From assembly GCF_048403405.1 (NCBI RefSeq), contig NZ_CP183129.1: a stretch of 64,000 nt of DNA; one strand, given 5' to 3'. The position numbers and the translations under genes were made by a program. Shown here piece after piece: positions 8,836-29,787 of this stretch (positions within the stretch are counted from its first letter, which is position 1; each line of letters opens with the position of its first letter). The notes under the pieces are model-generated. The model did no database searches. It was given only the letters and a program-made list of their open reading frames with translations, and was not told the origin of the DNA. This stretch comes from Escherichia coli (GTDB lineage Bacteria > Pseudomonadota > Gammaproteobacteria > Enterobacterales > Enterobacteriaceae).

Positions 8836-9621
8836 TTAGGAATTAAATGTCCAGCTCCCCGTATCGGTCACAATATCAGCTTCAATGATACGGTCACACT
8901 TCATATATTTGAACGTAGCCACATCACCGAATTTATATTTGGCTGGCAGGGTTCTGTTACCGACGCTCTCCATTTTACAGTTCCCTCTGTTTACCCGAAT
9001 GGATTTCAGCACCACGTTGTCATCAGTGATAGTGAGCTGAATAACACCATATTTGGTATTCCAGCCTTCATTGCTGACGGAGCTGCCGAACTGAACTTTA
9101 AACGGTGGTGTCGTAGATTGCTGTGCCTGCTGTTGCTGAGAGGGATCAGGTTTATTAGCCTGCTGGCTACCAACGCCATTAATGCCATTCTGAAGGAGGC
9201 TTCTGGAAACCTTAATGGTACCCGGCTTGCATGATACTGTGCTGGTTTCCTGCCCCATTGCATTCATGACAGTGTAATAAGCATCACCTGTACCATCATA
9301 TTCTGAGTAATTGACTGCAACCGCGCCTTCGATATCTTCATTTTCTCCACGTAATGTGAAAGAAGCGGTTCCTGCTCCCGGATTAGCCGCCAGAATCTGT
9401 TTCGCTTCGCCGGAAGGAATATCCAGTTTAATAACAGAGCCGCTCTCTTCGGAGTCACCGCCAGGATTTTCAAAACTGATATAAACGGTATTGCTGACGT
9501 GGCTGAGTGTCATTTGCTCGCCGTTATCAAGCATACATTGCAGGTCATAGGCCCCGACTGCATAAGCAGGGTGGAATGCAAATAAAGATACAAACAATGC
9601 AGGTATAATGATTAGTTTCAT
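8836..9621 (-). CDS. secreted protein of unknown function
   Basis: 261-aa ORF with an N-terminal signal-peptide-like segment (MKLIIIPALFVSLFAFHPAYA) and a Gln-rich linker. Confidence 0.5.
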   Translation of the reverse strand: MKLIIIPALFVSLFAFHPAYAVGAYDLQCMLDNGEQMTLSHVSNTVYISFENPGGDSEESGSVIKLDIPSGEAKQILAANPGAGTASFTLRGENEDIEGAVAVNYSEYDGTGDAYYTVMNAMGQETSTVSCKPGTIKVSRSLLQNGINGVGSQQANKPDPSQQQQAQQSTTPPFKVQFGSSVSNEGWNTKYGVIQLTITDDNVVLKSIRVNRGNCKMESVGNRTLPAKYKFGDVATFKYMKCDRIIEADIVTDTGSWTFNS

Positions 9622-9632
9622 TAAGCACTTCC

Positions 9633-10645
9633 CTATCCAAAAAAATGGTCCCAGGCATTACCAGCCCACTCGATAAGTTTGTCTTTACCCTTACGGGTAA
9701 GCTCTTTGACAGGCTTTGGTAACGGAAAAGAATCAATAACGTCGTCGAGTATCCCGGAGATTACGCTGCCGAAGCCGTTTTTTGCTTCCGTCTTGACCTC
9801 TTCGGTTTTGAACTCATCCTTAAACTGCGAAGCCGTGCTACTTTTAGCCCGATCAGGCAAAGCCCGAATAATAGTCTCTACCAGACGAAGAATGTTGTAG
9901 CCCTCATCGGCGGAGACAGGTGTCACCGGATAGTGCGTAAAACCAAATCGTTCAGTAATGTAGGCTTCTTTCTTTTCGATGTTGATGCGCTGTGCAGGAG
10001 ATGGCTGATGCAGATGAGTATCCCACTCGCGGAATGGCTCAATTTTATCAACCTGGTTAAGGACGAATAAAACGCGCTCACCCCCACCAGCAGGGAGCAG
10101 AACATTGTTGTAGAAATGCTCATCCGCAGAAAAGGCCCGATCGTCACCTTTTATTACCCACAGGATGAGATCCAGGGAGGGAAGCAAATTGCGGTATAAA
10201 TCTTCATACTCCTATCCCGCCGGGCATTCTCACCGACACCAGGTATATCAATTATCTTCAGCGAATGTTTTCCGAAGCGTATATGCAATTCCTGAACTTC
10301 ACGAGTACATGCCTCAACGTCGCTAACTGCACAAACCTCCCCTTTAAACAGCGCATTACATACGCTGCTTTTCCCCGCGCCAGTTTTTCCCATGGCACCA
10401 ATCACGGGTTCATAGTCGATGGCTTCACTGATTTTGTTCAACAGCTTTTCCCGCAGTGGCTGAGGGAAAATATCAAGAATATCCCTGATGTCGGGTATGT
10501 GCGGTGTGCTATCACCTTTTTGCTCGTTGCTACCATTACGTTCTGGAAATATATTGCTCCACATTCCCAAAATCCCGCCTTCCCTTCTGGTGACGCCACT
10601 GGCATCAGTAATCATCCGGCCTTCGCCCTTTACCGGGTCATCCAT
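9633..10645 (-). pseudogene. YeeP/YfjP/YkfA-family GTPase, frameshifted
   Basis: G1 P-loop (GAMGKTGAGKSS) and G3 (DIPGVGE) in ORF 10154..10645; G4 (NQVDK) in overlapping ORF 9633..10187 in another frame. Confidence 0.6.
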
Positions 10646-10684
10646 ACGAGGTCTCCTTTTTTAATTTGAAATAAACGTTGTCTG

Positions 10685-11368
10685 TTACTCTCTGAAGGTC
10701 TGAATTACGTCACTTATGAAACGAAAGTGAGGGAGGGCTGAAATAAACTCTTCACTGGCAGTCAGAGCATCAAGTTCAGGCTTTCTGCGGAAAGAGGTAT
10801 CCAGAACGGTTACGGCGTTAACGTCTTCCATCCGAAACACCTGTAAATTTCTGGTGCGGGTAGCAACAAGAAACCAGTTTTTGGACTGAAATATCAGACG
10901 GCGGGGAGCTACTGCTTCGTAGCTTTTACCGTTAACCAATAATGTAACGGCGCGGTAGTCGCGGATAGCTTCCGCCAGTTTCAGAAAACAGGCAGTCTGC
11001 GTGACGGGAGAAGATAATGCCCCATGCCCAATAAGACACGGCGATACGCCGGAATTGCTGGCAATCAACCGGATCAACTTGCGGTTCTGAGCCGGAATGA
11101 TTCCTGAAATTCCTGAATTACGTATAAACGCAAATGTATTGGGTAAGTGCTCCCGGCCTGTTTGGCGGATAAGTCGGTAACTTCCGCTGCGATGCTCAAG
11201 ATCCAGATGGATCAGGCGTTGCTGAAAATCCCGCTGTAGGGTGCGTTCTGAGACACCAAATTCATCAGCTAATACTTTAAGCTCCAGAGATTCACCAGCC
11301 AGTAAGCGGCTGATAATGACTGATAGCCTGACAGACAGGCGGTCATGATGATCATGCTGTGTTTTCAT
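10685..11368 (-). CDS. HTH-WYL domain transcriptional regulator (YfjR-like)
   Basis: N-terminal HTH (LKVLADEFGVSERTLQRDF) followed by a WYL-like region; start set at internal Met 11368. Confidence 0.55.
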   Translation of the reverse strand: MKTQHDHHDRLSVRLSVIISRLLAGESLELKVLADEFGVSERTLQRDFQQRLIHLDLEHRSGSYRLIRQTGREHLPNTFAFIRNSGISGIIPAQNRKLIRLIASNSGVSPCLIGHGALSSPVTQTACFLKLAEAIRDYRAVTLLVNGKSYEAVAPRRLIFQSKNWFLVATRTRNLQVFRMEDVNAVTVLDTSFRRKPELDALTASEEFISALPHFRFISDVIQTFRE

Positions 11369-12036
11369 AGTGGGGACAGTCCTGTTCTCCCAAAATATCA
11401 TGGTGTTGATACGGGAGATTATGCCGTACAGGTACGACACGTTATGTCGTACTAAAGGGGAGTTGATTGAAAAAATAGTGGGGTAACTGCAGTTATCTAA
11501 TACTCTGAAATATAAGTTAATTGATTAACTCTAAGGCAAGGTCATCATCACAGAAACGACACAACCTGTCGCGTTGCGCATTGTAAGAAAGAGGGTATCT
11601 GATGCGTACGAAAATGATTTAGTTCTGAAAATAGTTGCAAATGAATCAATACATTCTTATTTTTACAAAAAGTTGGAATGCATAAGCCAATTGACCATTA
11701 GCAATGACAAATCCTTCTAGCGCACTTCGTTGATTAAATATAGATTTAGGTATCCAATCTATTCACACATAACGATTTGCTCCGCTGAACTAACCGAGCA
11801 ACACTGCAAAAAAATATACCACGCCGACAATCAAGAAAAGTACTCACCAGTATAAAGTATCAAGTAAATCAATGCGATGTAGAATAAACACCGGCCCTTA
11901 ATGTGATAGGAATCACATTCCTTCAGCCCTGCATTCCGGCATAATCATATCGGAAGGTTAAACTGCTCACGCCATATCCCTTTTTAGGGGGATATCTATG
12001 AATACCGTTTCAATCCACTAATACATAAGGTAATAA

Positions 12037-12579
12037 ATGGACGCAGAGAAAATTCAGTCAGATATAGATGCTCTTTTGACATACATGAACGATGACATGG
12101 AGAATCTTGGTGAAACAATAAAAACCGTTACATTTGGATTCGAAACAGGCCAGAACGACCGCATTGCTATAGACGAGTTGCTTCACTGGCGGGAAGAGTA
12201 TTTGTTCAAAATCATCAATATTTGCCATTCCCGCTCTCTATTACGTAAGGACTTTGGAGATTTTGAGCATGTATCCTTGACAGAAGAGGGTCAGAGTCGT
12301 GCTATATCAATCAAACACGGAAAAAATCGCTCTTACGAGTTAGGGGCCAGCATGCAAATCGCAACGTTAAATGTTCATGGGCCTGCACAGGTTGGTAACG
12401 GTAATACGCAAAACATCCACAATGTATTTAATCAATTACTTCAGCAGATCGAGAAATCTTCCGCTTCTGATGAAGAAAAACAGGAAGCCAAAAAACGCCT
12501 GGCGAAATTTTTGGAACATCCTTTGGTTGGTTCTATTGTCGGCGGTCTTGCTGGTTCCCTTCCTGGTCTAATGGGATGA
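12037..12579 (+). CDS. hypothetical protein, 180 aa, Gly-rich C-terminus
   Basis: First gene of a compact plus-strand cassette; 4-nt overlap with the next gene; C-terminal glycine-zipper-like tail (GSIVGGLAGSLPGLMG). Confidence 0.45.
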   Translation: MDAEKIQSDIDALLTYMNDDMENLGETIKTVTFGFETGQNDRIAIDELLHWREEYLFKIINICHSRSLLRKDFGDFEHVSLTEEGQSRAISIKHGKNRSYELGASMQIATLNVHGPAQVGNGNTQNIHNVFNQLLQQIEKSSASDEEKQEAKKRLAKFLEHPLVGSIVGGLAGSLPGLMG

Positions 12580-12848
12580 TGGAAGATCTTAAAAAAACGA
12601 TCCGACTGCGCTGTGCATTCTGCCGTTCGGAACAGTTCGCCTTACCTTACGAGGGTTACTCCCCCCCAAGTCATAGCTTTGTCGTTTGTGCCAACTGCGG
12701 GAGGGAAAACGACGTCACATCTCTGCTCATCGTTGCTAAATCGAAAGGGATGGAAATAGCTGAAGAGTATGCTGATGAACTAGTTGAACAGATGACGAAA
12801 GATCTGTTTAAAACTTTTAAAAACCGTAAATTCATAAAGATAAAGTAA
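12576..12848 (+). CDS. small zinc-ribbon protein
   Basis: 90-aa ORF with two CxxC pairs (CAFCRSEQF … CANCGREN); translationally coupled to the upstream gene. Confidence 0.45.
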   Translation: MMEDLKKTIRLRCAFCRSEQFALPYEGYSPPSHSFVVCANCGRENDVTSLLIVAKSKGMEIAEEYADELVEQMTKDLFKTFKNRKFIKIK

Positions 12849-12875
12849 CTGTTACAAAAGTTACATGGAGGACAT

Positions 12876-13850
12876 ATGTCAAGGACTAAAGTACTTTTTG
12901 CTTATTGCCATGAGTTAGATCGGTGTTTATCGATTGATGAAGCAAGAACAGAATTCTTTTCAAAAAAACCGCAAGACAGACAACGATTCACTTTCTCCTG
13001 CAGCGATCGCAACTGCAATGTCACCATTAGTGGTGTTAATTACCATGTCAAAGCGGAAGATGGTGAAAAATTCAAAGTTGCACATTTTCGTTCTCCACAT
13101 CCCCATAATCTGGGATGTGAATGGATGCAGTTTTCTGAGGAAGCTAACCAGCCCCGTCAGGCTAGTGAAACAGAGGCTGACTACACAGAAAGAAAGGCAA
13201 GGCAGAAGCTAAATGATTTTATCAATTGCTTCGATCCTTGTACTGATGAGACAGATTCTGGGCAAAAAAAAACTGGACAACTTACATCACTTTCGCAGGT
13301 AAACCATCTCGCCAAAGACAATGATTTGTCTAACGATAAATCCCACAAGTGGAGCCGTTATACACGAACTAACCAGCTACAGCGCCTAGTAGACACCTGG
13401 CAGGAAGCCAAGAAAACTCTTACATACGACGAGTTCAGAACATTAAAACTAAGAGTCACAAACTACGGAAAGGTTTATTTCCATGAATACATAACGCATA
13501 TTCAGAAAGGGCTAAAAAACCAATATGAAGGCGTCATTTTCGGCGGTGGTTCTTTGGTTAAACGTTATGGTCGTGGCTTTCTCATTCACTTTTTCGATAA
13601 ACATAACGATAAACCAATTCGTCTGTATATCGATAAGAACCTTATGGAGAAAGGGCGATTCAGTCATTATATTGATGAAATATTATCAACAGAGAATGTG
13701 AGATATTTTCGTGTCTTTTTGTTAAACCCAGAAGTTTCCGAAAAAAAAGACCGAACTGGCAAGCCAGTTATCAACCTTGAGATATCAAGCCTGCGACAAT
13801 TGGCGATTTACTACGAACTCAACTCTTCTGAAGATAATGATTTTGTTTGA
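12876..13850 (+). CDS. hypothetical protein, 324 aa, Cys/His-rich N-terminus
   Basis: Long ORF in an AT-rich cassette; contains A9 and A8 homopolymer tracts; no family recognised. Confidence 0.5.
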   Translation: MSRTKVLFAYCHELDRCLSIDEARTEFFSKKPQDRQRFTFSCSDRNCNVTISGVNYHVKAEDGEKFKVAHFRSPHPHNLGCEWMQFSEEANQPRQASETEADYTERKARQKLNDFINCFDPCTDETDSGQKKTGQLTSLSQVNHLAKDNDLSNDKSHKWSRYTRTNQLQRLVDTWQEAKKTLTYDEFRTLKLRVTNYGKVYFHEYITHIQKGLKNQYEGVIFGGGSLVKRYGRGFLIHFFDKHNDKPIRLYIDKNLMEKGRFSHYIDEILSTENVRYFRVFLLNPEVSEKKDRTGKPVINLEISSLRQLAIYYELNSSEDNDFV

Positions 13851-13887
13851 CAGTAGCATGCTAAATTTATAAAAAGGAGAAGTATTT

Positions 13888-14181
13888 ATGGTCCCTGGAT
13901 ATGTATACATATTAATCAACACAAGCATGCCTGGTTTAATTAAAATAGGTCGAACGCTACGCGACTCACGCATGCGTGCGCGTGAACTCTTCTCCACCGG
14001 AGTGCCAACACCGTTTCAAGTTGCTTTTGAGCTGTTCGCTGAACAACATGAAGCTCTCGAGGCTACGGTACATAATGAATTGAATGATTTTCGAGCTAAT
14101 GTGGCACGCGAGTTTTTCCGCTACCCACTCGACAAGGCCGTTGCATTACTAATTCAGCTGCCCCCTCCAAAACGCCACTGA
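13888..14181 (+). CDS. T5orf172/GIY-YIG-like domain protein
   Basis: N-terminus YVYILINTSMPGLIKIGRT … RARELFSTGVPTPF resembles the T5orf172 (GIY-YIG-like) domain; 97 aa. Confidence 0.45.
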   Translation: MVPGYVYILINTSMPGLIKIGRTLRDSRMRARELFSTGVPTPFQVAFELFAEQHEALEATVHNELNDFRANVAREFFRYPLDKAVALLIQLPPPKRH

Positions 14182-14188
14182 ACAGTAT

Positions 14189-14539
14189 GTGGCCGAAGAT
14201 ATAACACAACGGCTTAGAGAAAAATATCCTTTATATATACCTCCAGAAATTGTAGCGGTGAGGATTGTTCAAATGCCCGGAGGTGTCTGGCTAGAGATAA
14301 CGACTGAGAAAAAAATCGCTAGATACCTCGTAGATCAGATAATCCAACGAACAGATCTAGCATTCATTGTTGACACAGACGAGGCATTCTTTCGGTCAGA
14401 AGATGATGTCCGTTTAAATGCGAATAAACTGGTAAATGATTACGATATTTACTCTATCGTCATGACTACGGACCTCTTTCATGATTACGCCTGCCAACAA
14501 ATAACACGCGCGCATCATGCCCAGAGAAATTTCGTCTGA
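14189..14539 (+). CDS. hypothetical protein, 116 aa
   Basis: ORF 8 nt after the previous gene in a different frame; could be a separate gene or a frameshifted continuation. Confidence 0.3.
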   Translation: MAEDITQRLREKYPLYIPPEIVAVRIVQMPGGVWLEITTEKKIARYLVDQIIQRTDLAFIVDTDEAFFRSEDDVRLNANKLVNDYDIYSIVMTTDLFHDYACQQITRAHHAQRNFV

Positions 14540-14649
14540 TGCAACAGGCGTAACGATACCCCAAATTCGTTACTCACAGTAATCCATGTCCAGTTTGGGT
14601 GTAAATATCACGCATAATCGTGCCATTCATATTTAGAGATCATCCGGCA

Positions 14650-15770
14650 TAATCAATCTGCCAACGAAGGAGATCGCTACGCGTAAAGCCCGTTTTACTG
14701 AGCATCAGATCATCGCTGTGATTAAGTCAGTTGAAGCCGGACGAACCGTTAAAAATGTCTGCCGGGAGGCCGGTATCTCTGAAGCCACCTACTACAACAG
14801 GAAGTCCAGATACGGCGGCATGGAAACTTCTGATATTAAAATCTTGAGGACGAAAACCGCCGTCTCAAACAGATGTTTGCTGACCTGAGTCTGGAGAGCC
14901 GAGCGCTGAAAGACGTTATCGAAAAAAAGCTTTAAAACCAGCCTTTAAGCGTGAGCTGGTCACTCATCTGATAACGACATTCGGACTCAGTATCAGTCAG
15001 GCCTGCCGGAGTCTGAACCTGAGCATAACGTTTACCGTTACCGCCCGGATACCACGCGTGATGAACCCGTTATTGCCGCCCTGTAGGCTGCGGCTGAGCG
15101 ATACCCACGATACGGCTTTCCGAAGCTTTTCCAGATTCTGCGACGGCAAGGATACTCGTGGAATCACAAAAGGCTCCACCGTATTTACTGTCTGCTGAAG
15201 CTGAATTTTCGCCGTAAGGGCCAGCAACGGCTGCCGGTACGCATCCCTCACCACTGGCTACGCCAGAAGCGCTGAACCAGTGATGGTCTGTCGATTTCAT
15301 GCATGATGCGCTGGCCTGTGGCCGTCATTTTCGCACGTTCAATGTTATTGATGACTTTAATCGTGAGGCGTTATCGATTGAAATCGATCTGAATCTGCCA
15401 TCTCTGCGGGTGGTCCGTGTACTTGACAGGATCGCGGCAAACCGCGCTTATCCGGTCATGCTGCGCATGGATAATGGTCCGGAATTTATCTCTCTGGCGC
15501 TGGCTGAATGGGCAGAGATACACGCAGTAAAACTGGAGTTCATCCAGCCGGGTAAGCCGACGCAGAACGCTTTCATTGAGCGTTTTAACAGGATATACCG
15601 TACAGAAATACTCGATTTTTATCTGTTCAGAACGCTGAATGAAGTACGGGAAATTACGGAGAAATGGTAATCAGAATATAACTGTGAACGCCCGCATGAA
15701 TCACTGAACAATATGACACCGGAGGAATACCGACTTCACAATTATTTGGCCGGGATCTCAAAAAATGCAT
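14650..15770 (+). mobile_element. degraded IS3-family insertion sequence (IS407-group-like), OrfA/OrfB remnants
   Basis: OrfA-like HTH/leucine-zipper frame (…EATYYNRKSRYGG…LEDENRRLKQMFADLSLE) and OrfB-like DDE-core frame (DNGPEFIS…FIQPGKPTQNAFIERFNR…ERPHESL) interrupted by several frameshifts; no intact N-terminus. Confidence 0.7.
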
Positions 15771-16091
15771 GGAACTAAAACGGGTCTATTTACAGGGCCA
15801 TCAGTTAGAAAATGTGGCGTACAACGATAAACAGTTTGGTTGCATAAAAAAACGTAAGAGTTGGTTATCATTCTTTCAACGTAAGGGAATTACAGTAGCG
15901 GTAGGAAAAACTGATAGGTTATTTTACATTGAATTCAAAAAACTGTTTATTTAAGCCGTTAGCGATAAGTTTCATTGTAATTTAGCCGGAAAATGTTCCA
16001 TTGGGAAAACTGAATTGAGACTAATATTATATTAGATGAGAATATTTCTGATGTAAATATACCGAGGAATGGAGGCATCCCTCGGTATATG

Positions 16092-18167
16092 TTAATTCAC
16101 ACCCAGCGCCTTATAAACCGCATCAACCGGGTCTGAGTAAAAACTCACCTGAAACTTGGTAAATAACTCTGCCGGAACCGTTGGAATATCCATAGCCGAG
16201 GACATCGGCAACAGAACCCGTTTTGCGCCGCTGTCGAAGGCGAGCTGTAAACTGGCGGCAAGATCCTGCACCGGGTTAATTACTCCACCAAGGGTCATAC
16301 TGCCCAACACCACCATCTGTTCCTGCACCGGCTTTGCCAGCAATATCGAACATAAAGCGATAAGCGCAGCAAGACTGGTTGCGGTGCTAGGGCCAGTATT
16401 ATGCAGTTCAACGACATGAAGGTGATATTCATGATCAGAGAATTTCGCTGCCGCGCTTACCCGATTCAAATTGCCTTTGAAGTAATCGAAACCGACGCGG
16501 ATAGCTTCTTTCGCGGAGGTATTTGAACCCAGGCCCGATACACTATGCTTACCATTACCGGCAGTCATCTGCGTTTCAAAACGATACAGCCCGGTCATAC
16601 CGCTTTCTGCCTGAGTGACCAAATGCACAACGCCCGGCTTTGGCATTCCGGCAGGAATTAGTTCGCTGCCGCCCTGTTCCGGTACGCTTACAAAAAACTC
16701 TTCCAGCGTTTCGTTATCGATGTAGCTAAAGTTCACATCGAAGAACTCCAGGCCGCCCAGTTTTTTAAGTTGCTCTTTCACTCGACGACGAACTTCCATC
16801 GCATAGGTCAGGCAGACTCGTACATCTTCTTTGCTGTACGCGCCATCGGGATGCATGAGTTTTAACAACCCCGACACTGTACGTCGAACAGCAATCACGT
16901 CACGCTGATTGAGGTTATTTCCCAGCTTGAAGAATTTATCAATTGCATCGGAGAAGCTACGTTTACGCATCTCGCGCATGTATTCAGCGAGATAATCCGT
17001 AATCAAACCATAGCGATTGGTGAAAAATTCCGGGCGCATCTTAGGAATTTCCCAACCAGGAATATAGGCATGGAAGCGGTCAAAAAATGCAGTATCAATC
17101 ATCGCATCCGGGAACGGTGCTAGCAGATGGCTGGTTTTGACCAGTGTATCTACGCTCTGATTGATGTTGCCAACAAACACCATGGAGGCTTTGCCTTCAA
17201 TGGAGTCCCGACCACGAGAGAATGAGCCTGATGCCATGTAATCCTTCATGATCTGCACGCCATCTTTGTCTTTGAAGGTGATCCCTGCCACTTCATCAAA
17301 CGCGACGACGTCCCACATTCCCACAAGACCAATCTGCCGGCTGGCCATGTTGTAAAACAAGTTCGCCACCGTGGTTTGCCCGCCAGATACCAGCAGGGAG
17401 TTAGGAGAGCACTCTTTATAAACATGACTCTTACCTGTACCACGTGGACCAAGCTCGCAGACGTTATAGTTGTTTTCCACAAAGGGAATCATGCGAGTAA
17501 TCAGATGCCACTTGGTACGCTGCTCAATATTTGCAGGTTCCATCCCGACCGAACGTAACAGCACATCAATCCACTGGTCGCGATCAAACTGCTTGCGGGC
17601 TTCAAATACCTCGTCCATATCCATATTTGGCATCTGGATCGGCTTCAGTGTGAACAGCGAGAAAGGAGACGTTTTTTGCCCCTCTTCATAAAAGTAGTTC
17701 ACGGTGATCATGCACCAGATGCCACCAGTCAGCAGTTTCTCGTTGTCTTTCACCATCTGCGACGGCACCAGGGCATCTTTAATGCCAAGGTTAGAGAGCT
17801 GGGCTTCGTAAACGTCTTTCTTCTGATTTAGCTTTACCGTGACCTTATCGATAATCTTGTAAGAACCACGCTCGCGAATTAGTGATTTCACTTTTTCTGC
17901 TTCATCCGGGCGGACGTAGTTATCAGAAAGAATACGCTTAACCGACTGTAGCCCCTGCTCGACAACCTCATCGTCATCGGAGGCACAGTACATACCGAGT
18001 AGATATTCCAGTACGTAAACCGGAACATTCGCCCCTTCTTTAAGTTGCTTAGTCAGATCCTTACGCACCACGCGACCGCGAAAGTGCTGATTCAACAATG
18101 AATCCAGGTCCTGAGCCAACACAGAGGCCGTTTCCATGTTACTGGCTGAGTTATCCTGCTGTTGCAT
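16092..18167 (-). CDS. brxL: BREX BrxL (Lon-like protease-domain ATPase)
   Basis: 691-aa ORF with Walker A (LGPRGTGKSH) and C-terminal Lon-protease-like domain; last gene of the BREX operon. Confidence 0.85.
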   Translation of the reverse strand: MQQQDNSASNMETASVLAQDLDSLLNQHFRGRVVRKDLTKQLKEGANVPVYVLEYLLGMYCASDDDEVVEQGLQSVKRILSDNYVRPDEAEKVKSLIRERGSYKIIDKVTVKLNQKKDVYEAQLSNLGIKDALVPSQMVKDNEKLLTGGIWCMITVNYFYEEGQKTSPFSLFTLKPIQMPNMDMDEVFEARKQFDRDQWIDVLLRSVGMEPANIEQRTKWHLITRMIPFVENNYNVCELGPRGTGKSHVYKECSPNSLLVSGGQTTVANLFYNMASRQIGLVGMWDVVAFDEVAGITFKDKDGVQIMKDYMASGSFSRGRDSIEGKASMVFVGNINQSVDTLVKTSHLLAPFPDAMIDTAFFDRFHAYIPGWEIPKMRPEFFTNRYGLITDYLAEYMREMRKRSFSDAIDKFFKLGNNLNQRDVIAVRRTVSGLLKLMHPDGAYSKEDVRVCLTYAMEVRRRVKEQLKKLGGLEFFDVNFSYIDNETLEEFFVSVPEQGGSELIPAGMPKPGVVHLVTQAESGMTGLYRFETQMTAGNGKHSVSGLGSNTSAKEAIRVGFDYFKGNLNRVSAAAKFSDHEYHLHVVELHNTGPSTATSLAALIALCSILLAKPVQEQMVVLGSMTLGGVINPVQDLAASLQLAFDSGAKRVLLPMSSAMDIPTVPAELFTKFQVSFYSDPVDAVYKALGVN

Positions 18168-18177
18168 AACGCCTCAC

Positions 18178-20775
18178 TTAAAAGAAGTCATCCTGAAATG
18201 CCAGGTCGATCGTGATCGGGTAGCGACCATACTCTGTTGCGCTGTCCGCATTCTCCAGGATAAGAACATACTTGTTTTTACGATTGAATGCCGTCCCCAT
18301 GAGTTTCATGGTTACATCGCGGGTGCGTTTACCCATATCTTCGTTATCACTGTCGAAGCATACTGTTTCCGTGCCGGAGACGACCTGGTTGTTTTCATCG
18401 ACGATAAAGATATTCAGCGTGCGCGGCTCATTTAAATCATTCACTGCCGAAGTCTGAATAAAACCAATTTTATCAATGCTGTTAACCAGTTTGATCACCT
18501 GATCCCGCGCAACGACGGGCACGGGCTGCCGCTGGGGTTGCTTCTCAGCCGCTTTCTTTTCAAGCGCGCGAATCTTCAACACAGGAACACACACTTCCTG
18601 CAGCATGGCTCCGCCATGAACGAAACGAGCACCCCCTACGAAGTGGAAACGCTGTACTCCTTTGGGTAACAGGAATTCACTTTCATCGCTTGCGCCTGCA
18701 GTATCAGCCAGTTTGCCGTGCCAGCAAAATTCACTTTCAGGCAGTTGATGGCCTACAATAAAACGCTTATTCGCTTCAATCGTGTCTTTGGCTTTACTTT
18801 CCAGCTTCGTTTTATCCTGCTCCACCAGCGCTTGTTGTTGGAACAGGAAGCCGTGATCGGCGGTAACAAAAATTCGGCTGGCATTAAATCGGCTACGCAG
18901 GCGTGAAACCAGATCTTTTAGCTCAGTGATTGCACTTCGGCAGGCCTCAAACGTTTTATCTTCCGTTGCAGCCTTATCACCCATGGCATCTATAGTGTCG
19001 TGCCAGATATAAACTACGGAAGCGTTGCGGATTTGCTCGTTCACTTCCTGGTTATTGGCGTTCTGCAAGTCCTTTGCTTTCAGCGCTACACCATTCACCT
19101 TCGCAAGAATAGCGGCTCTTTTTTCAAACCCGGAAGTGGACATCCCATCGGCGTATACTACACCAGAATTATCAGGAAGATAGCTCAACGACTCATGAGG
19201 CAACAGTGCGGCCATGCCCAGTTGGGTATAGCTTGGGAGCACTCCGGTCTGGGAGCGCAGCTCTGCACTGAAGTGCTTCTCATAGTTGATATGCCTGCCC
19301 AGCTCTTCCGCCACTTCGTAGCGCAATGCATCCGAGATCACGACAAAAACACGTTTGACCTGCGAGGTGTCAAACTGACGTTTAACATTCTCTTTATAGA
19401 AATTGCGCTGCAGGGGTATGCCGCTAAACTGCCAGGCCTGCATACGGTTTTCCGCTTCCAGCAGTTTGTTCCAGCCGCGACTTAGTTCAGTCAGATACCA
19501 ATTGCTGTATAACTCTTCGATGAATTTATCCAGTTCATGCAGGATCATCGCCCCTTTGCTGTGCACTGGTGCAGCATATTCATTGAACAAACGATAGGTC
19601 TGATCGAAGCGATAAATTTCGTCACAATAGGCCTTCCAGAACGCACCTGTATCGGGGAAATTAAACCCGTCGGTGTAACGGTTACGCAAATTCAGCAAGC
19701 GTTCTGCCTGACGAATAGCATTCCAGATAGAAAGATACTCTGGGCGGGTTTGGCTCCAGTATTTCGCACTGCGCTCTGAAACCAACGCTTTAAACGCATC
19801 TCTGTCCAGAGTGGTGCTCTCTTCCTGCAACTGTGTCACCAGACCACGGATAATAAGTTGCTCAATAGCCTCGAAGGTTTCACATTTTGCCAGTGTATAT
19901 GGTGAGCTGTAGTTGTAGTGTTCTTTTGGCTGGAGCGTCTGCTGCAAATCCTCTGCACAGTAATCGTATTCTACTTTATAGCGACGATCGTTGCGCCACG
20001 CCCCCATAAAGGCCAGTGACGAGGCCCGACCAGCCGCGGTAGCCAGCACATTTTTACTCAACCAGTCACGATGTGCTTCATCACCCTGCGCCCAGAGATC
20101 GGTACAGAACAGTTTCAGAAGCAGATTTTCCATTGAAGGAGATTCAGACTGGTATCCCAACTCAAGGCGAAGAATTTCCCAAAGTACCTCATCCAGGCCA
20201 AGCTTCGTCAGTACGGCGAAAGTGTTCTCGAGTGCGCTATCATCTTGCTGCCGTGCTGCGACAAACTGCTGAACCAAAGCAAATAGTATTTCTTTGGTTT
20301 CGAAGGTACTGGCCCCGACCACCACCGCCAGCATTTTCTTATCGAGAGAGTTTTCCGTTTCGCGCTCGGTGACCCATCCCTTCAGGATCTGAGTTCGCTT
20401 AACGGTAAAGAAGGCTTTGCGAAGCTGAATATGTTCGCGTAAACCGAGTTGCGGGATACCCAGAGAATTCAGGGTGATCGCCGCATAATCAGCGTGGAAT
20501 TCGGTACTATAGAGGCGGATATCCAGCAACCAGTCCTGCTCGCGAGCAGGAACCTCACAGGTGAAATAGAGTAAAAATTTCTGCTCAGGCTCGTCGATTT
20601 CGAGTCGTTTTTTTGTTGCGAGCACAGAAACGCCACGCATATCCAGCAGCGTGACATTGTCGAGATCCAGCTCATTAATTGAATCAGTGAAGCGTTGTTC
20701 CGGGTCGTGCCAGAAGACGATACGGTTGTCGGTAAACTTCTGACGAAGCCCTGATTCCAGTTCTTTAAATTGCAT
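18178..20775 (-). CDS. pglZ: BREX PglZ (alkaline-phosphatase-superfamily protein)
   Basis: 865-aa ORF with PglZ-type motifs (…VTADHGF…); positioned between the methyltransferase and brxL. Confidence 0.85.
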   Translation of the reverse strand: MQFKELESGLRQKFTDNRIVFWHDPEQRFTDSINELDLDNVTLLDMRGVSVLATKKRLEIDEPEQKFLLYFTCEVPAREQDWLLDIRLYSTEFHADYAAITLNSLGIPQLGLREHIQLRKAFFTVKRTQILKGWVTERETENSLDKKMLAVVVGASTFETKEILFALVQQFVAARQQDDSALENTFAVLTKLGLDEVLWEILRLELGYQSESPSMENLLLKLFCTDLWAQGDEAHRDWLSKNVLATAAGRASSLAFMGAWRNDRRYKVEYDYCAEDLQQTLQPKEHYNYSSPYTLAKCETFEAIEQLIIRGLVTQLQEESTTLDRDAFKALVSERSAKYWSQTRPEYLSIWNAIRQAERLLNLRNRYTDGFNFPDTGAFWKAYCDEIYRFDQTYRLFNEYAAPVHSKGAMILHELDKFIEELYSNWYLTELSRGWNKLLEAENRMQAWQFSGIPLQRNFYKENVKRQFDTSQVKRVFVVISDALRYEVAEELGRHINYEKHFSAELRSQTGVLPSYTQLGMAALLPHESLSYLPDNSGVVYADGMSTSGFEKRAAILAKVNGVALKAKDLQNANNQEVNEQIRNASVVYIWHDTIDAMGDKAATEDKTFEACRSAITELKDLVSRLRSRFNASRIFVTADHGFLFQQQALVEQDKTKLESKAKDTIEANKRFIVGHQLPESEFCWHGKLADTAGASDESEFLLPKGVQRFHFVGGARFVHGGAMLQEVCVPVLKIRALEKKAAEKQPQRQPVPVVARDQVIKLVNSIDKIGFIQTSAVNDLNEPRTLNIFIVDENNQVVSGTETVCFDSDNEDMGKRTRDVTMKLMGTAFNRKNKYVLILENADSATEYGRYPITIDLAFQDDFF

Positions 20776-21344
20776 TATTGATTCTCAAACCATTCGACCA
20801 GTTCATGAGCGCTAGGGCAAGCAGGGTGTCTGGCAGAACTCTGAATATCAAAACCGTGATGCGTTACCATTCTCCTGGCAAATGCGGTTTTAGAACTTCC
20901 CGGTCCCTGTTTTCCTAGCTCGCGTGAAATTACTTTTAAACGATCCCATGGCATTTCAGTTGTAGCTTCAGGTAACTCTTCATTAAATGTGTCTACTTTA
21001 AGCCATTTTTTCATTGCCTCTGAATCGGCAAGAAACCAAGCCTCAACTGCTTTGACTGCGATAAACGAGATGTCGACATCTTGATGGGCAATTCGGGCCC
21101 GTACATCAGCAACAGATGCCGCATCTTCCAGGTCGGTCAGAATACAGATCCGTTCAGCACCTACATTTCTGAGCCTAGCAACGAAATTATCAACATACTT
21201 CGGTAACAGGTTACCACCACCTTTGGCATCAATAACGGGAGTTACCAATTCAAAATTATTCGTGCGCAGAAATGCAATGAACGCTGGTGAATTCACGATG
21301 ATTGACTCAGTATCACCTTCAACGATAAAACCTATTTTTACCAT
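20775..21344 (-). CDS. small TOPRIM-like protein (DUF4276-like) embedded in the BREX operon
   Basis: 189 aa; N-terminal IGFIVEGDTE and downstream ICILTDLED resemble TOPRIM Glu and DxD motifs; start overlaps the ATPase stop by 7 nt and its stop overlaps the pglZ start (TAATG). Confidence 0.6.
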   Translation of the reverse strand: MVKIGFIVEGDTESIIVNSPAFIAFLRTNNFELVTPVIDAKGGGNLLPKYVDNFVARLRNVGAERICILTDLEDAASVADVRARIAHQDVDISFIAVKAVEAWFLADSEAMKKWLKVDTFNEELPEATTEMPWDRLKVISRELGKQGPGSSKTAFARRMVTHHGFDIQSSARHPACPSAHELVEWFENQ

Positions 21345-22459
21345 GGCAAACCGCCATCAAACATATTCATCAGCCACGCGGTATCCAGTGGGATTTCCTT
21401 TTTATCAACCCCCGCATCTGAAGCATGCATCAGCTGAGTTTTCCCCTCTTTTTTACTAACAAACCACAGTTCGTCTGGTTCCAGATTGCGAACAATAGAT
21501 TCACTATGGGTAGTAATAACAATTGGATGATTCAAAGAGGCATTTTCACGCATCAATTGCACAAGTTCCCCAATGGCTTTTGGGTGAATACCGCGTTCAG
21601 GCTCTTCAATAATGGTCATCCCCGTTTGCTGTGCTCGACTCAAGATGGCCGTCATAATACAAAGCGTGAAGATGGTGCCGTCAGAGATAAGATGGGCAGG
21701 AAAGCGGGCACGAGTTCCCTGTTCTTTAAAGGTCAATACCGTTGAGCCATCCAATTTTTGTTTCTCGGTCGATACATTTTCCATCCCCGGAACGATGAGT
21801 TCCATCCACTCCAGTATTTGCTCTTTAAATTCGCTATTCGATTCGAGAGCAGCAAGCACAGAAGCAATGTTTCGACCATGACTGTCCAGAAATGTCGAGT
21901 CAGTTTTGGCGCTATCGGGCTCTTTAGCACGTAACGGATCGATGCGAAAAACAACAATATTGGTCAAAAAAGCGTACAGTTCACTTTTCCCCAGTAGCAT
22001 TAGTGCCGTCATATCTGACGAGTAGTTAGGGATTAAAGTCGCAGGGATTTCATCACTATCGCTCAGGCGAATCATAAGAGTATCAGGGTGCTTACGATCA
22101 ATATAAATATCTCCATCAATGACCAACTTTTCAGTGATTGTTGGTTTTTTATCCATGTTTTTGATCGTCAAGTCATAGGTAAACTGTTTTCCTCCCAGCT
22201 CAATTTGAAGGTGCAGTGAAGCCGTAGTCCGATTTTCCTTACGCAGCTTGTAGCAATGAATCTGCTGAAAACCGCCAAAATCACGGATTGCTTGTGTCGC
22301 CCCGGTTTTCACTACGGCACCAAAAAAAGCCAATGCATCGGTAATGTTACTTTTGCCCGCACCATTGGCTCCAGCAAAGGTGATAAATGGTGGGCTTTCC
22401 ACAAGGGAAAGCTCCGCGATGCTCTTGTAGCCTTTAATAATCAGGGGATGTTGATCCAT
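21338..22459 (-). CDS. ABC-type ATPase (AAA_15/AAA_21-like) embedded in the BREX operon
   Basis: 373 aa; Walker A (GANGAGKSN) near the N-terminus and C-terminal ABC-like H-loop region (IVITTHSESIV); start overlaps the pglX stop (TAATG). Confidence 0.7.
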   Translation of the reverse strand: MDQHPLIIKGYKSIAELSLVESPPFITFAGANGAGKSNITDALAFFGAVVKTGATQAIRDFGGFQQIHCYKLRKENRTTASLHLQIELGGKQFTYDLTIKNMDKKPTITEKLVIDGDIYIDRKHPDTLMIRLSDSDEIPATLIPNYSSDMTALMLLGKSELYAFLTNIVVFRIDPLRAKEPDSAKTDSTFLDSHGRNIASVLAALESNSEFKEQILEWMELIVPGMENVSTEKQKLDGSTVLTFKEQGTRARFPAHLISDGTIFTLCIMTAILSRAQQTGMTIIEEPERGIHPKAIGELVQLMRENASLNHPIVITTHSESIVRNLEPDELWFVSKKEGKTQLMHASDAGVDKKEIPLDTAWLMNMFDGGLPW

Positions 22460-25400
22460 TATGCCTCCTGTGGCGCACTGCCGGTGATCGCCTTGACATC
22501 CGCCAGCAGATCGCCAAATTTGCCGTAGTTAACCTTAACGCCGTCATCCAGATCAATAGTGATACGTCTATCAGCATAGTGACGCAAGCGATCGTCAAAA
22601 TTGCGCAGCTCGTTGAATTTTTTAGTCAACCCATCCAGCTCTTTTTTCAGGCGTGTGGTGGCAGCGCCCGATTCTGCATTTTTAAGCTGATCGTTAACAA
22701 GATCGATATTTCCCTGGTAGCGTGCCAGCAGCGGAACTACATATTCGGTACGCATACGTGACAATGTGCCTTCATTATAACGGTGCAGATACACCAGGCA
22801 CTCAAACGCCTTCTCTTTACCTGAGCTGAATAGCCAGTAAATTGGGCGCTTCTTGTACATCTTCATATGATCTTTCCAGAACTGGGTGGAAAGATAGCGA
22901 CGGATGGTATCCAGCGAAGACTCGCCTTTTTTCGGCTTGATTGCGTACAAGCAGAGGCTTTCGGCGATGAAATCGAGGTTTTCTTGTAAATGTTCTTCGC
23001 CCCAGACTGTGCGAACGAACTCTTTAACGCGGGAGGTAACATCGTCATCGAACCAGTCAGAATCCATTAATGGCAGGATACCATCTTCATCGGCAGGGAA
23101 GGTTTGGTAGGCGCCTTCATCTACTAATTCAGAAAAGCCTTTGTTACCTTCGTGGGCGTAGACCAAGCCTTCGCGATCAAGGGAATAGCGGCCCATCATG
23201 CAGCCAATAGCCAGGCTAAGTGAGTTTATAACCTGAATCGCCTTAAATTGGTTATATTCATCTTTTGAAATTGAGCTTAATGACTGGAAAACATTATTTT
23301 CCAATGTTATTTCTGCCAAGGCAAGATTGTTTTCGTTTAAAATATTGCATTTTTCATAAAATATTTTGTTATTATCACATTCTAGCTCATGTGTTTTGAT
23401 TAACTTTTGATAAAAAACTTCAGTCTGGTTTTTTAATATGTTTACTAGGCTGCCGTTTTGAAACGCATCCTGATTGAAGGAAAACTGATAACTATTTTCC
23501 TGCTGACTCCAATTTTCTTTAGCCAGAGAAATTAGTTCAGCAGTGTTCAAGGATAGGCTCTCAATCATTTTCTCATCAAAAAATGCTGGTAATTTACTTA
23601 TATCCCCCGGTTGATAATTTAATGTTGGAGAGATAGCCTTTATTAAAGAGATAATAATATCACTATTAATAAATGCTAACACAGGCAGGTAAAGGTCTTC
23701 ATTATTAACAAATAACGAAGACCCTGCATTGTCAAATAATGAGGACTCTGAGACTCTTGCAGATGTCTTGCTTGAGGAAAGAGCGTTCCATGTAATCCCT
23801 TTTTTAAATATAAAATCTAAATTATAGTTATGCGAACGTACCTTTCCTGATTTTTCATCGGTAAAATTTTGAATTTCCCGACCATCGTCGAACCAATTTA
23901 CGACATAATCAAGATTACCGTACCACTTTCTATATTCACCACCTTTCTGATAAGGGAACCATTTCAGACCGGATTTTTTAGCTTGAATACGATCAGTAAA
24001 ATCAAAACCGATATTCGCGAAATTAACTTCATGCCAAAAACGTAAAAAACGCTCATTATCCGCTGTTGCCATTCCAAGGCGTGTTGAGGCAATTTGAGAT
24101 ATTTTTTTATTATCAAATAAATTAACCTCACTTTCGCTGAGCCAATACGCAATCGGTGCACCGGGGATTTTTTGGAAGTCATCGGCAGCGGCAGTCTTTA
24201 AACGATCGTTTTTAACCGGAAATTCTTTTGGATATCCTTCATCATTGATATCGTCATTCTCAGTATAAGAGAATGCCCCTTGATAAGAAGGAATGTGAAC
24301 ATTTCTAAACACTGTTGCATTGGTACCAAAGGCAATTTTCATAACGCCATTGCCCATATGTACCATCGTCTCAATAGTGTATTTATCCAATATATTCGCA
24401 CGCATATTTTCATAGCTAGACAAAAACATCCATGATTGCATAGTCACCATTGAGTTGTACGCAGCATCTTTGAGCCAGGAAAAACCCCGCTCAATAAACA
24501 TCGCAAACAAATCTGACTTACTGTCCGGGAATTGTTTCTTAGCGAACTCTTTCAGTTCACCGTTCATCCCTTTCCCACCCATATACGGCGGGTTCGCCAC
24601 AACCGCATCGTAACGCTGCGCCAAAATCCACGCCTGCTGAATATACGGAATCAGCTCTGCTGCCGCTTCTTTCTGCGGGATATCACCCTCGACAGCCAGA
24701 CGATATAGTCCACCCAGGAATGTCTTCAGCGCCGTTTCATCTTCCTGCGGCACCTGAATCAGTGATCCCAGCGTTTTTGCACTAGTGAACAAAGCCAGAG
24801 TACGCATCAGTAGCTTATATTCCGCGCTGTCGGTATTGGCCAGTGACGTCCCTTGGGTAAACATATCTCCCATGCTGCCGCGTTGCGCCTGCTGATGAAA
24901 GTTCAGCTTGGTCCACAGTTCAGCGATATCCAGTTTACTTTCCTGCAGCGAAACGATATTCAGGCGAACGCCACGGCCCAGAATACGACGATCGTCCTGA
25001 CGGGCAAGCATCAGCATCGCAAAACCGGAAAGCTGCGCCGCACGGTCATCAATATCTAGGCCGAAAATATTGTTTTCCAGAATCAGCTGCGGAATGTCAC
25101 GGGTACGGTAGCCACGCTCTTCGTAAATGGCCTTCAGCACGTTATAGGCTTCGGTCAGGATATGCCCGGAGCCGCAGGCCGGGTCCAGCACCTTAATACT
25201 TTCTGGTTCAATGCTTGATGGGGTAATAGCCGCCAGCTGTGCCTGCACTTCCGGCGTTTGTTCCGCTGGCTCAATGTAGTACGGCATTTTGCCTTTCAGG
25301 CTGGAGTCCGGATAGGTTTGCAGCCACTGGCGGCCCACCGAGTTCTGCACCAGATACTGCACAATCCAGTTCGGAGTAAACAGCTGGGTAGCGGCAGGAA

Positions 25401-26112
25401 TATCTTCGCTCTTCACCACCTTGCCGATCACATCATCTTTTTTCTCGGAAATATAAAACTGATACAACCAGCCGATCACTTCGACCTGTTTCCAGTCTTC
25501 TTCAGGAATCGTGTCCACCAGCCCGCGCAGAATAGAGTCGGTGCGAGTCAGGTTATCCGGCAATACCAGTTCGATATCATCATTGACTGCTTCGAACAGG
25601 AAAGGCATAGCGCCGTGCAGCGCATGGCACTGTGCAAGCAATAGTTCACGGTACAGCTCTTCGTCACGATCGCCCGCCAGCTTCATCTCCACCAGGCGTG
25701 ATTTGTCCAGCCCAAGTGCATCAGCCACTTCCGGCACATGATCCAGAACCTCAAAACTCCCTTCCAGGGTCGGGTGAGACAGCATACGGAAACCGTGATC
25801 AAGATAGCCATGCAGCTCCATATAGCGAATAGCGCAAAAGCGGTTAAACCAGGTGTAAGCGATGTGCTCCACCAGCACGTCATAGCCCTGCTTTTCTGCA
25901 CGCTTGACCAGACGTTCACGGCGTGAAGCCAGTGATTTATCCAGCGAGAACTGACCATATCGCACACTGTCGCCAAGATCGGTTGCTTGCGCTATTTGCA
26001 GGTTGCCTTTTTTATCGGCGTCAATACCCAGCGTGGTCAGTTTTTGCATGACCGCATCGCGGAACTGTTTACGTGCCACCGGGGCGTATTTTTTGATATT
26101 TGACGTATTCAT
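22459..26112 (-). CDS. pglX: BREX PglX (N6-adenine DNA methyltransferase / specificity protein)
   Basis: 1217-aa ORF with methyltransferase motif I (LDPACGSGHIL) and motif IV (VVANPPYMGG); AT-rich central to C-terminal block. Confidence 0.85.
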   Translation of the reverse strand: MNTSNIKKYAPVARKQFRDAVMQKLTTLGIDADKKGNLQIAQATDLGDSVRYGQFSLDKSLASRRERLVKRAEKQGYDVLVEHIAYTWFNRFCAIRYMELHGYLDHGFRMLSHPTLEGSFEVLDHVPEVADALGLDKSRLVEMKLAGDRDEELYRELLLAQCHALHGAMPFLFEAVNDDIELVLPDNLTRTDSILRGLVDTIPEEDWKQVEVIGWLYQFYISEKKDDVIGKVVKSEDIPAATQLFTPNWIVQYLVQNSVGRQWLQTYPDSSLKGKMPYYIEPAEQTPEVQAQLAAITPSSIEPESIKVLDPACGSGHILTEAYNVLKAIYEERGYRTRDIPQLILENNIFGLDIDDRAAQLSGFAMLMLARQDDRRILGRGVRLNIVSLQESKLDIAELWTKLNFHQQAQRGSMGDMFTQGTSLANTDSAEYKLLMRTLALFTSAKTLGSLIQVPQEDETALKTFLGGLYRLAVEGDIPQKEAAAELIPYIQQAWILAQRYDAVVANPPYMGGKGMNGELKEFAKKQFPDSKSDLFAMFIERGFSWLKDAAYNSMVTMQSWMFLSSYENMRANILDKYTIETMVHMGNGVMKIAFGTNATVFRNVHIPSYQGAFSYTENDDINDEGYPKEFPVKNDRLKTAAADDFQKIPGAPIAYWLSESEVNLFDNKKISQIASTRLGMATADNERFLRFWHEVNFANIGFDFTDRIQAKKSGLKWFPYQKGGEYRKWYGNLDYVVNWFDDGREIQNFTDEKSGKVRSHNYNLDFIFKKGITWNALSSSKTSARVSESSLFDNAGSSLFVNNEDLYLPVLAFINSDIIISLIKAISPTLNYQPGDISKLPAFFDEKMIESLSLNTAELISLAKENWSQQENSYQFSFNQDAFQNGSLVNILKNQTEVFYQKLIKTHELECDNNKIFYEKCNILNENNLALAEITLENNVFQSLSSISKDEYNQFKAIQVINSLSLAIGCMMGRYSLDREGLVYAHEGNKGFSELVDEGAYQTFPADEDGILPLMDSDWFDDDVTSRVKEFVRTVWGEEHLQENLDFIAESLCLYAIKPKKGESSLDTIRRYLSTQFWKDHMKMYKKRPIYWLFSSGKEKAFECLVYLHRYNEGTLSRMRTEYVVPLLARYQGNIDLVNDQLKNAESGAATTRLKKELDGLTKKFNELRNFDDRLRHYADRRITIDLDDGVKVNYGKFGDLLADVKAITGSAPQEA

Positions 26113-26160
26113 ATGAAGTCCTGAAAAGGGCAGACAATGTCTGCCCTGAAAATGGGGAAA

Positions 26161-29775: not shown

Positions 29776-29787
29776 TGCTGTCGTCTT

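Follow-up and report, generated by a model that had tools for sequence, protein, structure and literature searches.

A gene for a regulator with a helix-turn-helix (HTH) and a WYL domain stands back to back with a four-gene cassette in a 64,000-nucleotide stretch of the Escherichia coli contig NZ_CP183129.1 (assembly GCF_048403405.1; hereafter the window), and the question that this locus raises is which genes the regulator serves. A preliminary description of the window assumed a repressor that may control the cassette, in the manner of the WYL-domain repressors of defence operons, or else an orphan island regulator. We consider it quite probable that the regulator, whichever the direction in which it acts, is an autoregulator belonging to the island backbone and not a regulator of the cassette. 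As to how it acts, the reading that we favour, with a confidence that falls somewhat short of even, is that of a YfjR-family factor lacking the WCX domain, which would serve as a ligand-gated, DriD-like activator of its own operon, consisting of the WYL regulator, a GTPase and a 261-amino-acid (aa) protein (p261), and the cassette would have a promoter of its own; repression of the same operon is a close second. Domain content, linkage to the backbone, conservation of the boxes, covariation of protein and DNA, and promoter geometry are shown here, and on the basis of sequence, conservation and analogy we infer that the protein binds DNA, which ligand it has, where transcription starts and in which direction it regulates.

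The mechanical open reading frame (ORF) of the regulator (10685-11440, 251 aa) begins at a GTG codon. The start codon was corrected to that of the N-terminus MKTQ, as given by RefSeq and by 32 aligned homologues, leaving a protein of 227 aa (Table 1) that aligns end to end with YfjR of E. coli K-12 (42% identity over 228 residues, full length, E = 9e-57) and is under strong purifying selection, with ratios of nonsynonymous to synonymous substitution (dN/dS) of 0.04-0.12 against relatives in other genera. The gap between the regulator on the minus strand and the ATG of the first cassette gene on the plus strand (12037) spans 668 bp (11369-12036), has a GC content of 38.2% compared with 47.8% for the whole window, and contains only short ORFs of 21-48 aa. 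Both the AT-rich gap of ~670 bp and the orientation of a YfjR-like HTH-WYL gene transcribed away from the cassette were thus correctly described from the outset, the latter being borne out by family-level Pfam matches, PADLOC, Foldseek and the identity with YfjR.

Taken as a single sequence, the regulator gave marginal Pfam matches (HTH_11, independent E-value 1e-3; WYL, 1.4e-3). At the level of the family, with E ≤ 1e-3, WYL was matched in 20 of 32 homologues (best 1.2e-9) and HTH_11 in 24 of 32, and the PADLOC 'WYL' model covered residues 11-201 of the regulator at 1.3e-16. Neither the regulator nor the cassette proteins were assigned a specific family by NCBIfam, bar a weak CxxC match. In the AlphaFold2 model (mean predicted local distance difference test score, pLDDT, of 75.7), a winged HTH (wHTH) comprising three helices and a β-hairpin occupies approximately residues 4-66, and a helical linker leads to the WYL β-barrel at approximately residues 125-192, with five strands at 139-192. 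The barrel is followed by a C-terminal tail of 35 aa (residues 193-227), which forms short helices and carries the conserved motif FIxALPHFRFI. The top Foldseek matches of the model in the PDB are PafBC, DriD, CapW and BrxR (probability 1.0; E 6e-7 to 4e-4), with alignments that begin at the N-terminus, and the C-domain of DriD compares with the model at a root-mean-square deviation of ~4 Å.

The WCX domain has no counterpart in the regulator: none of the 32 members has such a family among its Pfam matches, the protein continues for only ~35 residues beyond the WYL barrel, and members of the YfjR family are 227-242 aa long compared with 266-330 aa for the solved relatives. WCX is the dimerisation domain in DriD and PafBC and forms part of the single-stranded DNA (ssDNA) pocket in CapW; because it is absent, a CapW-type ligand pocket cannot be assumed for the regulator. 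Of the wHTH-WYL-WCX architecture anticipated in the preliminary description, HTH and WYL are therefore present and WCX is missing. The regulator is a genuine transcription factor of the YfjR-like HTH-WYL kind that lacks WCX, and it is a member of the YfjR family, with which both its full-length homology and its island context fit.

Alignments across cargo types and genera delineate ~290 bp next to the regulator as a conserved regulatory region, in which two palindromes are located. The proximal box, with the site TACGACA-CGTTA-TGTCGTA, reads GTACGACA-TAACG-TGTCGTAC from the regulator strand, is centred 74 bp before the ATG and ends 8 nt upstream of the hexamer CATAAT. From the position of the invariant CATAAT, transcription of the operon is predicted to start near 11411, which would place the centre of the proximal box at approximately -31 and the box itself over the -35 position. 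The distal box, with the site CGACA-CAACC-TGTCG, is centred 196 bp before the ATG and 122 bp (~11.6 helical turns) from the proximal box. Both boxes and CATAAT are invariant across 16 aligned upstream regions, which represent at least 8 genera and several cargo types, and the GACA...TGTC of the distal box is retained in all 16, including those with different cargo. The exact core CGAC-N7-GTCG occurs four times in the 64 kb, compared with 0.82 expected (no shuffle reached four), and two of the four sites lie within 137 bp of sequence upstream of the regulator gene. The other two (16872-16886 in brxL and 37560-37574 in idnT) were rejected as chance matches, being intragenic and having no -10 partner at the right distance.

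This architecture is shared across the family. In ~70 of 88 loci (38-100% protein identity), the start codon is preceded by GAC-N7-GTC boxes at -65 to -74, at -174 to -197 or at both, and an nAnnnT hexamer follows every proximal box at a distance of 8 nt, with CATAAT, TAAAAT, TAGAAT, TACAGT or TACATT at the same -10 position in distant clades. The palindrome of K-12 yfjR, CGGACA-CCACC-TGTCCG, lies at -180. Between lineages that have diverged at 53-60% of synonymous sites, the proximal 110 bp are still 80-96% identical. The predicted regulator promoter matches the -35 consensus at only one position of six and has no TGn extension; a sigma-70 consensus scan, which missed this promoter without a -35 element, returned 5 sites compared with 3.4 expected, and all 5 left the conserved blocks unexplained. 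The fold of the conserved 332 nt gave no sign of a structured RNA (z = -1.0), and the sole Rfam match in 10500-12300 was a sub-threshold one to RAGATH-30 (20 bits against a gathering score of 59.5). Seen from the regulator, a further conserved block, AAATGATTTAGTTCTGAAAATAGTT, lies upstream of the distal box; it is kept across cargo types and genera at ≥88% protein identity, is not found in the Yokenella/Hafnia clade, and no convincing promoter, protein site or RNA could be assigned to it.

On the outward side of the two boxes, inspection by eye and by script revealed no -10-like hexamer, and the only full arrangement of a CGAC-core box, 8 nt and a -10 hexamer in the window is that of the regulator itself. 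No box is present in the cargo-specific 11656-12036, and the nearest one is 465 bp from the cassette ATG. Family architecture, covariation with residue 45 (see below) and the match to the DriD operator together suggest that the boxes are the regulator's own operators. We note separately a breakpoint at ~11476, 107 bp upstream of the ATG: the gene of strain Nissle 1917 is practically identical (proportion of differing synonymous sites, pS, of 0.006), and beyond the breakpoint the sequences are ~60% identical, with the distal box kept.

The first base of the half-site, which flanks the invariant GAC, changes in step with recognition-helix residue 45: Gln is accompanied by C in 78 of 94 half-sites, Arg by G in 90 of 92 and Tyr by T in 10 of 12, counts that do not represent phylogenetically independent events, and the Q/CGAC and R/GGAC pairs each recur in separate clades. 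Residue 45 is located within the family recognition motif S-E-R42-T-L-Q45-R46-D, with invariant arginines at positions 42 and 46. The structure of DriD on DNA shows the two guanines being read by Arg37 and Arg41, and base 1 being contacted by Glu40 (PMC10853764). By motif and published numbering, and not by residue-level superposition, R42 and R46 match Arg37 and Arg41 of DriD, and residue 45 matches Glu40; the mapping rests on the published numbering because a PDB sequence search with the HTH alone did not retrieve DriD.

DriD is a wHTH-WYL-WCX activator of the SOS-independent DNA damage response of Caulobacter crescentus, with the operator consensus ATACGAC(N7)GTCGTAT (PMC10853764). The half-sites of the proximal box are identical to it (TACGAC-N7-GTCGTA, with an AT-rich centre), and the two proteins share the R-T-x-x-R arrangement of base-reading arginines in the recognition helix, the location of a box in their own promoter region, and the wHTH and WYL folds (Foldseek E 2e-6). 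Promoters activated by DriD lack a -35 element and have the box over that position, at a fixed distance from the -10 element (PMC13004042). Three published DriD promoter oligonucleotides read, in our own reading and with an uncertainty of 1 nt, as a 21-bp box, 8 nt and CAAnnn. The conserved geometry at the regulator, in which 8 nt separate the box from CATAAT or a comparable hexamer, is like that of these oligonucleotides, given that its -10 is predicted and that their offset is certain to ±1 nt. The two proteins differ in that they are ~19% identical in sequence, the regulator has 227 aa compared with 327 aa and no WCX dimerisation domain, and it resides on an enterobacterial mobile island, whereas DriD belongs to a chromosomal damage regulon. 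Moreover, DriD drives a divergent operon at its own locus, whereas the geometry at the regulator points at its own operon. The ligand and the direction of regulation are assigned by analogy in this comparison.

The mycobacterial WYL activator PafBC is the best PDB match (Foldseek 5.9e-7; WYL profile E 1.8e-6) and likewise activates promoters without a -35 element, but it is a much larger heterodimer with a WCX domain, recognizes a non-palindromic site and binds only together with RNA polymerase. In DNA recognition and promoter geometry, the regulator appears closest to DriD.

The activator model would operate as follows. A dimer of the regulator would bind the two DriD-type palindromes (CGAC-N7-GTCG) in the ~290 bp before its own start codon, with the proximal box standing in for the -35 element by virtue of the succession of a 21-bp box, 8 nt and CATAAT. 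By analogy with DriD, a ligand on the WYL domain would enable the regulator to recruit RNA polymerase to this weak promoter and thereby to switch on its own operon, the ligand possibly being ssDNA or some other nucleic acid generated by DNA damage or by phage or island replication. The cassette would be one of many interchangeable cargos between integrase and regulator, with its own, probably CRP-dependent, promoter. For YfjR, chromatin immunoprecipitation with exonuclease treatment (ChIP-exo) detected no binding in unstressed K-12 (PMC8464067), which fits ligand-dependent DNA binding by YfjR, and genomic SELEX (systematic evolution of ligands by exponential enrichment) lists only the yfjR operon as a YfjR target (PMC8249747).

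On its downstream side, the regulator looks like the head of a conserved three-gene operon, regulator-GTPase-p261, and no terminator-like sites were seen between these genes. The second gene encodes a YfjP-like GTPase (Pfam MMR_HSR1, 9e-16), which is frameshifted in the window into ORFs 10154-10645 and 9633-10187; Nissle 1917, strain W and other genera have it intact, at 337 aa. The third product, p261, has an N-terminal signal peptide and no Pfam family, is intact in the window and is kept with the regulator in relatives at ≥84% identity. In a scan of one genome per species, which yielded 80 loci whose neighbours were checked by tblastn, a YfjP-like GTPase adjoins the regulator in ~70 of the 80. 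The gene order is WYL-GTPase-p261 at ≥84% identity and GTPase-(DUF932)-WYL in distant loci, as in K-12 yfjPQR. RefSeq annotation of collinear genomes, together with the tblastn searches across the 80 loci, places the family in a recurring island backbone with a YfjP-like GTPase, an AlpA-like HTH protein, a YfjJ/Gp2-family protein, DUF932, RadC and CbtA/YeeU. Within the window, the island ends at a tyrosine integrase pseudogene and the tRNA-Leu(CAA) gene leuX, which is known as E. coli defence hotspot #37 (PMC12707154), and the cargo, namely the cassette, an IS3 remnant and the BREX operon, lies between integrase and regulator. The linkage to the GTPase, the variable cargo and the location at leuX make the regulator part of the backbone of a tRNA-integrating island, situated at the inner border of its cargo hotspot. 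A full-length regulator gene is present in 208 of 5426 complete E. coli genomes. To call it an island regulator was close to the truth; orphan it is not, in that it appears to head three genes.

YfjR itself, which is encoded on the K-12 cryptic prophage CP4-57 and is essentially uncharacterised, shares with the regulator the length class, the C-terminal ALPHFRF motif, the island family, the linkage to a YfjP-type GTPase and an analogous palindrome, CGGACA-N5-TGTCCG, 180 bp upstream of the gene. The K-12 locus differs in its order, yfjP-yfjQ-yfjR-ypjK-yfjS-yfjT, in the combination of R45 with a GGAC box, compared with Q45 and a CGAC box here, and in that its clade lacks a perfect proximal box. 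In the literature, nothing specific was found on the function of YfjP, YkfA or YeeP, or on this regulator at the leuX hotspot.

The upstream neighbourhood, in contrast to this constant backbone, is variable. The cassette and the whole intergenic region accompany the regulator in only 25 of the ~206-208 E. coli genomes that carry it; in the others only the regulator-proximal gap is recognisable, followed by different cargo, such as an ABC-three-component system in Nissle 1917, a DEAD-helicase type I restriction-modification system in strain W, and an IS2 element with a DUF6575 gene in strain 504211. Altogether, the cargo neighbour differs in at least 11 ways across E. coli and other genera and stands in either orientation: among 9 loci from other genera, 4 have it in the same direction as the regulator. 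Close relatives in other genera have type I restriction-modification, PsyrT, Septu PtuA or Mokosh MkoC on the cargo side, and further neighbours there are a DrmD-like SNF2 helicase, a PDC-M55/HEC-05-like protein and a PD-T4-10-like protein. Cargo exchange seems to have used the upstream region of the regulator as a homology or recombination arm.

The cassette itself encodes a 180-aa protein, a 90-aa CxxC protein (PADLOC PDC-M14A, 4e-9), a 324-aa protein and a GIY-YIG protein (PADLOC PDC-S57 at 3e-29, also PD-Lambda-1), the gene for which is split into 13888-14181 and 14189-14539 and encodes an intact 217-aa protein in NZ_CP148382. In tblastn searches the four proteins were absent from all 80 other-species loci and occurred only in two E. 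coli loci with the same cassette. Homologues of the 324-aa protein (60-70% identity) are found as single genes, antisense inside type IV secretion system (T4SS)/conjugation clusters of Klebsiella and Vibrio (loci L089-L093, 7001-8008/8011); the one in Klebsiella adjoins a VirB11-like ATPase gene, and neither a WYL gene nor other cassette genes lie near any of them. Thus, the cassette is not a fixed four-gene unit.

The cargo-specific leader of the cassette showed no similarity to the upstream regions found with other cargos. It contains the sole exact CRP core in the 64 kb, TGTGA-TAGGAA-TCACA at 11902-11917, which is conserved in NZ_CP148382 with one spacer change; a search allowing one mismatch also recovers a site in the idnK-idnD intergenic region. 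A CATAAT at 11940-11945 follows the core at 22 nt, the spacing of a class II CRP promoter, and a class II CRP-dependent promoter with a start near 11951 is predicted for the cassette. Because the cargo-specific leader holds both elements, the cassette seems to bring its own promoter.

These data can be weighed against a model that keeps the same boxes and the same operon and reverses the sign, namely that of a CapW/BrxR-type autorepressor, which when ligand-free would sit on the proximal box and block RNA polymerase, possibly form a loop to the distal box, and leave upon binding of a ligand to the WYL domain. We hold this for possible, at a confidence appreciably below even. CapW and BrxR, the wHTH-WYL-WCX repressors of CBASS, BREX and other defence systems, act through ~20 bp palindromes in their own promoter regions (PMC11662680; PMC9122601) and are among the fold matches of the regulator (wHTH and WYL; Foldseek E 8e-6 to 4e-4), with which they share a palindromic operator of ~20 bp with a 5-bp centre near their own gene and a position beside defence genes. 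In addition, the box of Acinetobacter BrxR also overlaps the -35 element (PMC9122589), the helical spacing of the two boxes would suit a repression loop, and SELEX with purified YfjR, apparently with no added ligand, reportedly recovers the yfjR operon (PMC8249747). However, no clade has a recognisable -35 or extended -10 element (at most 2/6, in our own reading), such that the unrepressed promoter would be weak, unlike the canonical -35/-10 promoter of BrxR. Moreover, the motif S-x-R-T-x-x-R-D and the box match DriD and not the SRQQ recognition motif of BrxR, and ChIP-exo showed no occupancy in unstressed K-12. Box and -35-less promoter fit the DriD activator as well as, or better than, BrxR and CapW, and the initial assumption of a repressor is not supported. 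Several points also weigh against the activator that we favour. Repressors just as typically place a box over the -35 position, as BrxR does in Acinetobacter (PMC9122589), and the negative ChIP-exo result may simply reflect low expression of YfjR in K-12. The -10 element and the transcription start are predictions from sequence, the distal box is without a clear partner -10 element in the window, and the covariation counts carry the dependence mentioned above. The linker of the AlphaFold2 model is of low confidence (pLDDT 50-65), ligand and dimerisation mode may differ from those of DriD, PafBC and CapW as WCX is absent, and with the frameshift in the GTPase the regulated output is partly degraded in this strain.

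Control of the divergent cassette, or of any hotspot cargo, through a shared or outward promoter, as CapW exerts at a bidirectional promoter, appears unlikely. In its favour, the first cargo gene diverges from the regulator in the window and also in the majority of E. coli variants, every cargo type is accompanied by the distal box and the block at 11611-11637, DriD activates a divergent operon at its own locus (PMC13004042), and WYL regulators are enriched beside defence systems (PMC9122601). Such control is nevertheless at odds with the number of cargo variants (at least 11) and their co-directional placement in almost half of the other-genus loci (4 of 9), with the absence of a -10-like hexamer at the DriD distance outward of either box, with the 465 bp between the nearest box and the cassette ATG, with a cassette-side 380 bp that is cargo-specific and holds an exact CRP core at class II spacing, and with 324-aa homologues in T4SS clusters that have no WYL gene. 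The regulator differs from CapW and BrxR in not being co-inherited with any one defence system and in having operators that do not face the cargo, so that neither its inheritance nor the placement of its operators is that of a BrxR/CapW-type defence repressor. Backbone co-inheritance, exchangeable cargo, boxes that face only their own gene and the predicted CRP promoter thus speak against the proposed control of the cassette, whereas the statement that the regulator is not a BrxR for the BREX operon holds, with the IS3 remnant and BREX-1 arranged as described. Least probable, in our view, is a locus in decay, in which the regulator would be intact by chance and regulate nothing of consequence in this strain. 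The frameshifted GTPase, the split GIY-YIG gene, the integrase pseudogene and the nearby IS3 remnant could be read in this way, but this reading is opposed by the strong purifying selection on the regulator, by a promoter and operator that have changed less than synonymous sites, by the occurrence of the same allele at the head of an intact operon in Nissle 1917 (ECOLIN_RS20995-21005) and other strains, and by a downstream p261 gene that is intact in the window.

The features of the locus and its surroundings are compiled in Table 1. Positions 10000-14600 are 100% identical to several E. coli strains, and the window is collinear with E. coli MS 69-1 from ~8.4 kb onward; the annotation for 33-41 kb was taken from MS 69-1, strain 4621 being dropped as it is not collinear beyond BREX. 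Next to BREX, strain 4621 has an extra island in which a further YfjR-type regulator, of 226 aa, adjoins a GTPase gene in a K-12-like order (L088, 10503-12270), indicating that paralogous copies of the WYL-GTPase module can coexist in one genome. The GTPase shows weak similarity in PADLOC to the dynamin-like LeoA and LeoBC. An inverted repeat at 11974-11996, ATATCCC-TTTTTA-GGGGGATAT, which lies in the predicted 5' untranslated region of the cassette and 40 nt ahead of the first ATG, may form a leader hairpin. The BREX-1 operon contains two extra genes between pglX and pglZ, for an AAA ATPase (21338-22459) and a 189-aa hypothetical protein (20775-21344), which may constitute a system embedded within BREX.

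Table 1. Coordinates of the regulator locus and of neighbouring features in the window.
Feature	Position	Strand	Remarks
p261, 261-aa protein, third operon gene	8836-9621	minus	11 bp after the GTPase gene
YfjP-like GTPase (MMR_HSR1), second operon gene	9633-10645	minus	39 bp downstream of the regulator stop codon
YfjR-family wHTH-WYL regulator	10685-11368	minus	227 aa plus stop codon; RefSeq and homologue alignment
Predicted 5' untranslated region of the regulator operon	11369-11411	minus	GGGAGAA/AGGA Shine-Dalgarno-like sequences; nearly invariant across genera
Predicted -10 hexamer CATAAT	11418-11423	minus	invariant in 16/16 aligned upstream regions
Proximal box GTACGACA-CGTTA-TGTCGTAC	11432-11452	unstranded	perfect 8+5+8 palindrome
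Distal box AAACGACA-CAACC-TGTCGCGT	11554-11574	unstranded	core CGAC-N7-GTCG
Conserved block AAATGATTTAGTTCTGAAAATAGTT	11611-11637	unstranded	upstream of the distal box seen from the regulator
Cassette leader, cargo-specific	11656-12036	plus	37.5% GC
Cargo cassette, four genes	12037-14539	plus	ORFs, PADLOC
IS3-family transposase pseudogene	14673-15778	plus	separates the cassette from BREX
BREX-1 operon	16092-30992		
Tyrosine integrase pseudogene, island end	31576-32843	minus	annotation
tRNA-Leu(CAA) leuX, island end	33043-33127	minus	annotation

The leuX hotspot was already known, whereas we found no published description of the operator, the specificity rule or the promoter of the YfjR family. 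WYL regulators beside defence genes are usually taken to be BrxR/CapW-like repressors of their neighbours, and the present locus illustrates how misleading mere vicinity can be: the regulator stands at the fixed edge of a hotspot that exchanges its cargo, and the genes it serves appear to be those of its own operon. For hotspot #37, this yields the annotation rule that the cargo lies between integrase and regulator. A large share of E. coli genomes, K-12 included, carry YfjR-family genes, and the family gains a testable operator, a specificity rule of one residue and one base, and a promoter model that, even though WCX is missing, links it to the DriD and PafBC activators. That the YfjR family as a whole consists of WCX-less, DriD-like, nucleic-acid-sensing activators on enterobacterial integrative islands, which induce a module of GTPase and secreted protein upon DNA damage, phage infection or island replication, is a proposal that we regard as possible but doubtful. 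If it is true, an uncharacterised module would lie at the inner edge of the most heavily occupied E. coli defence hotspot, the GTPase/p261 module could itself have a defence or island-maintenance function, and the Q/R/Y45 code would render the operators of the family predictable and rewirable.

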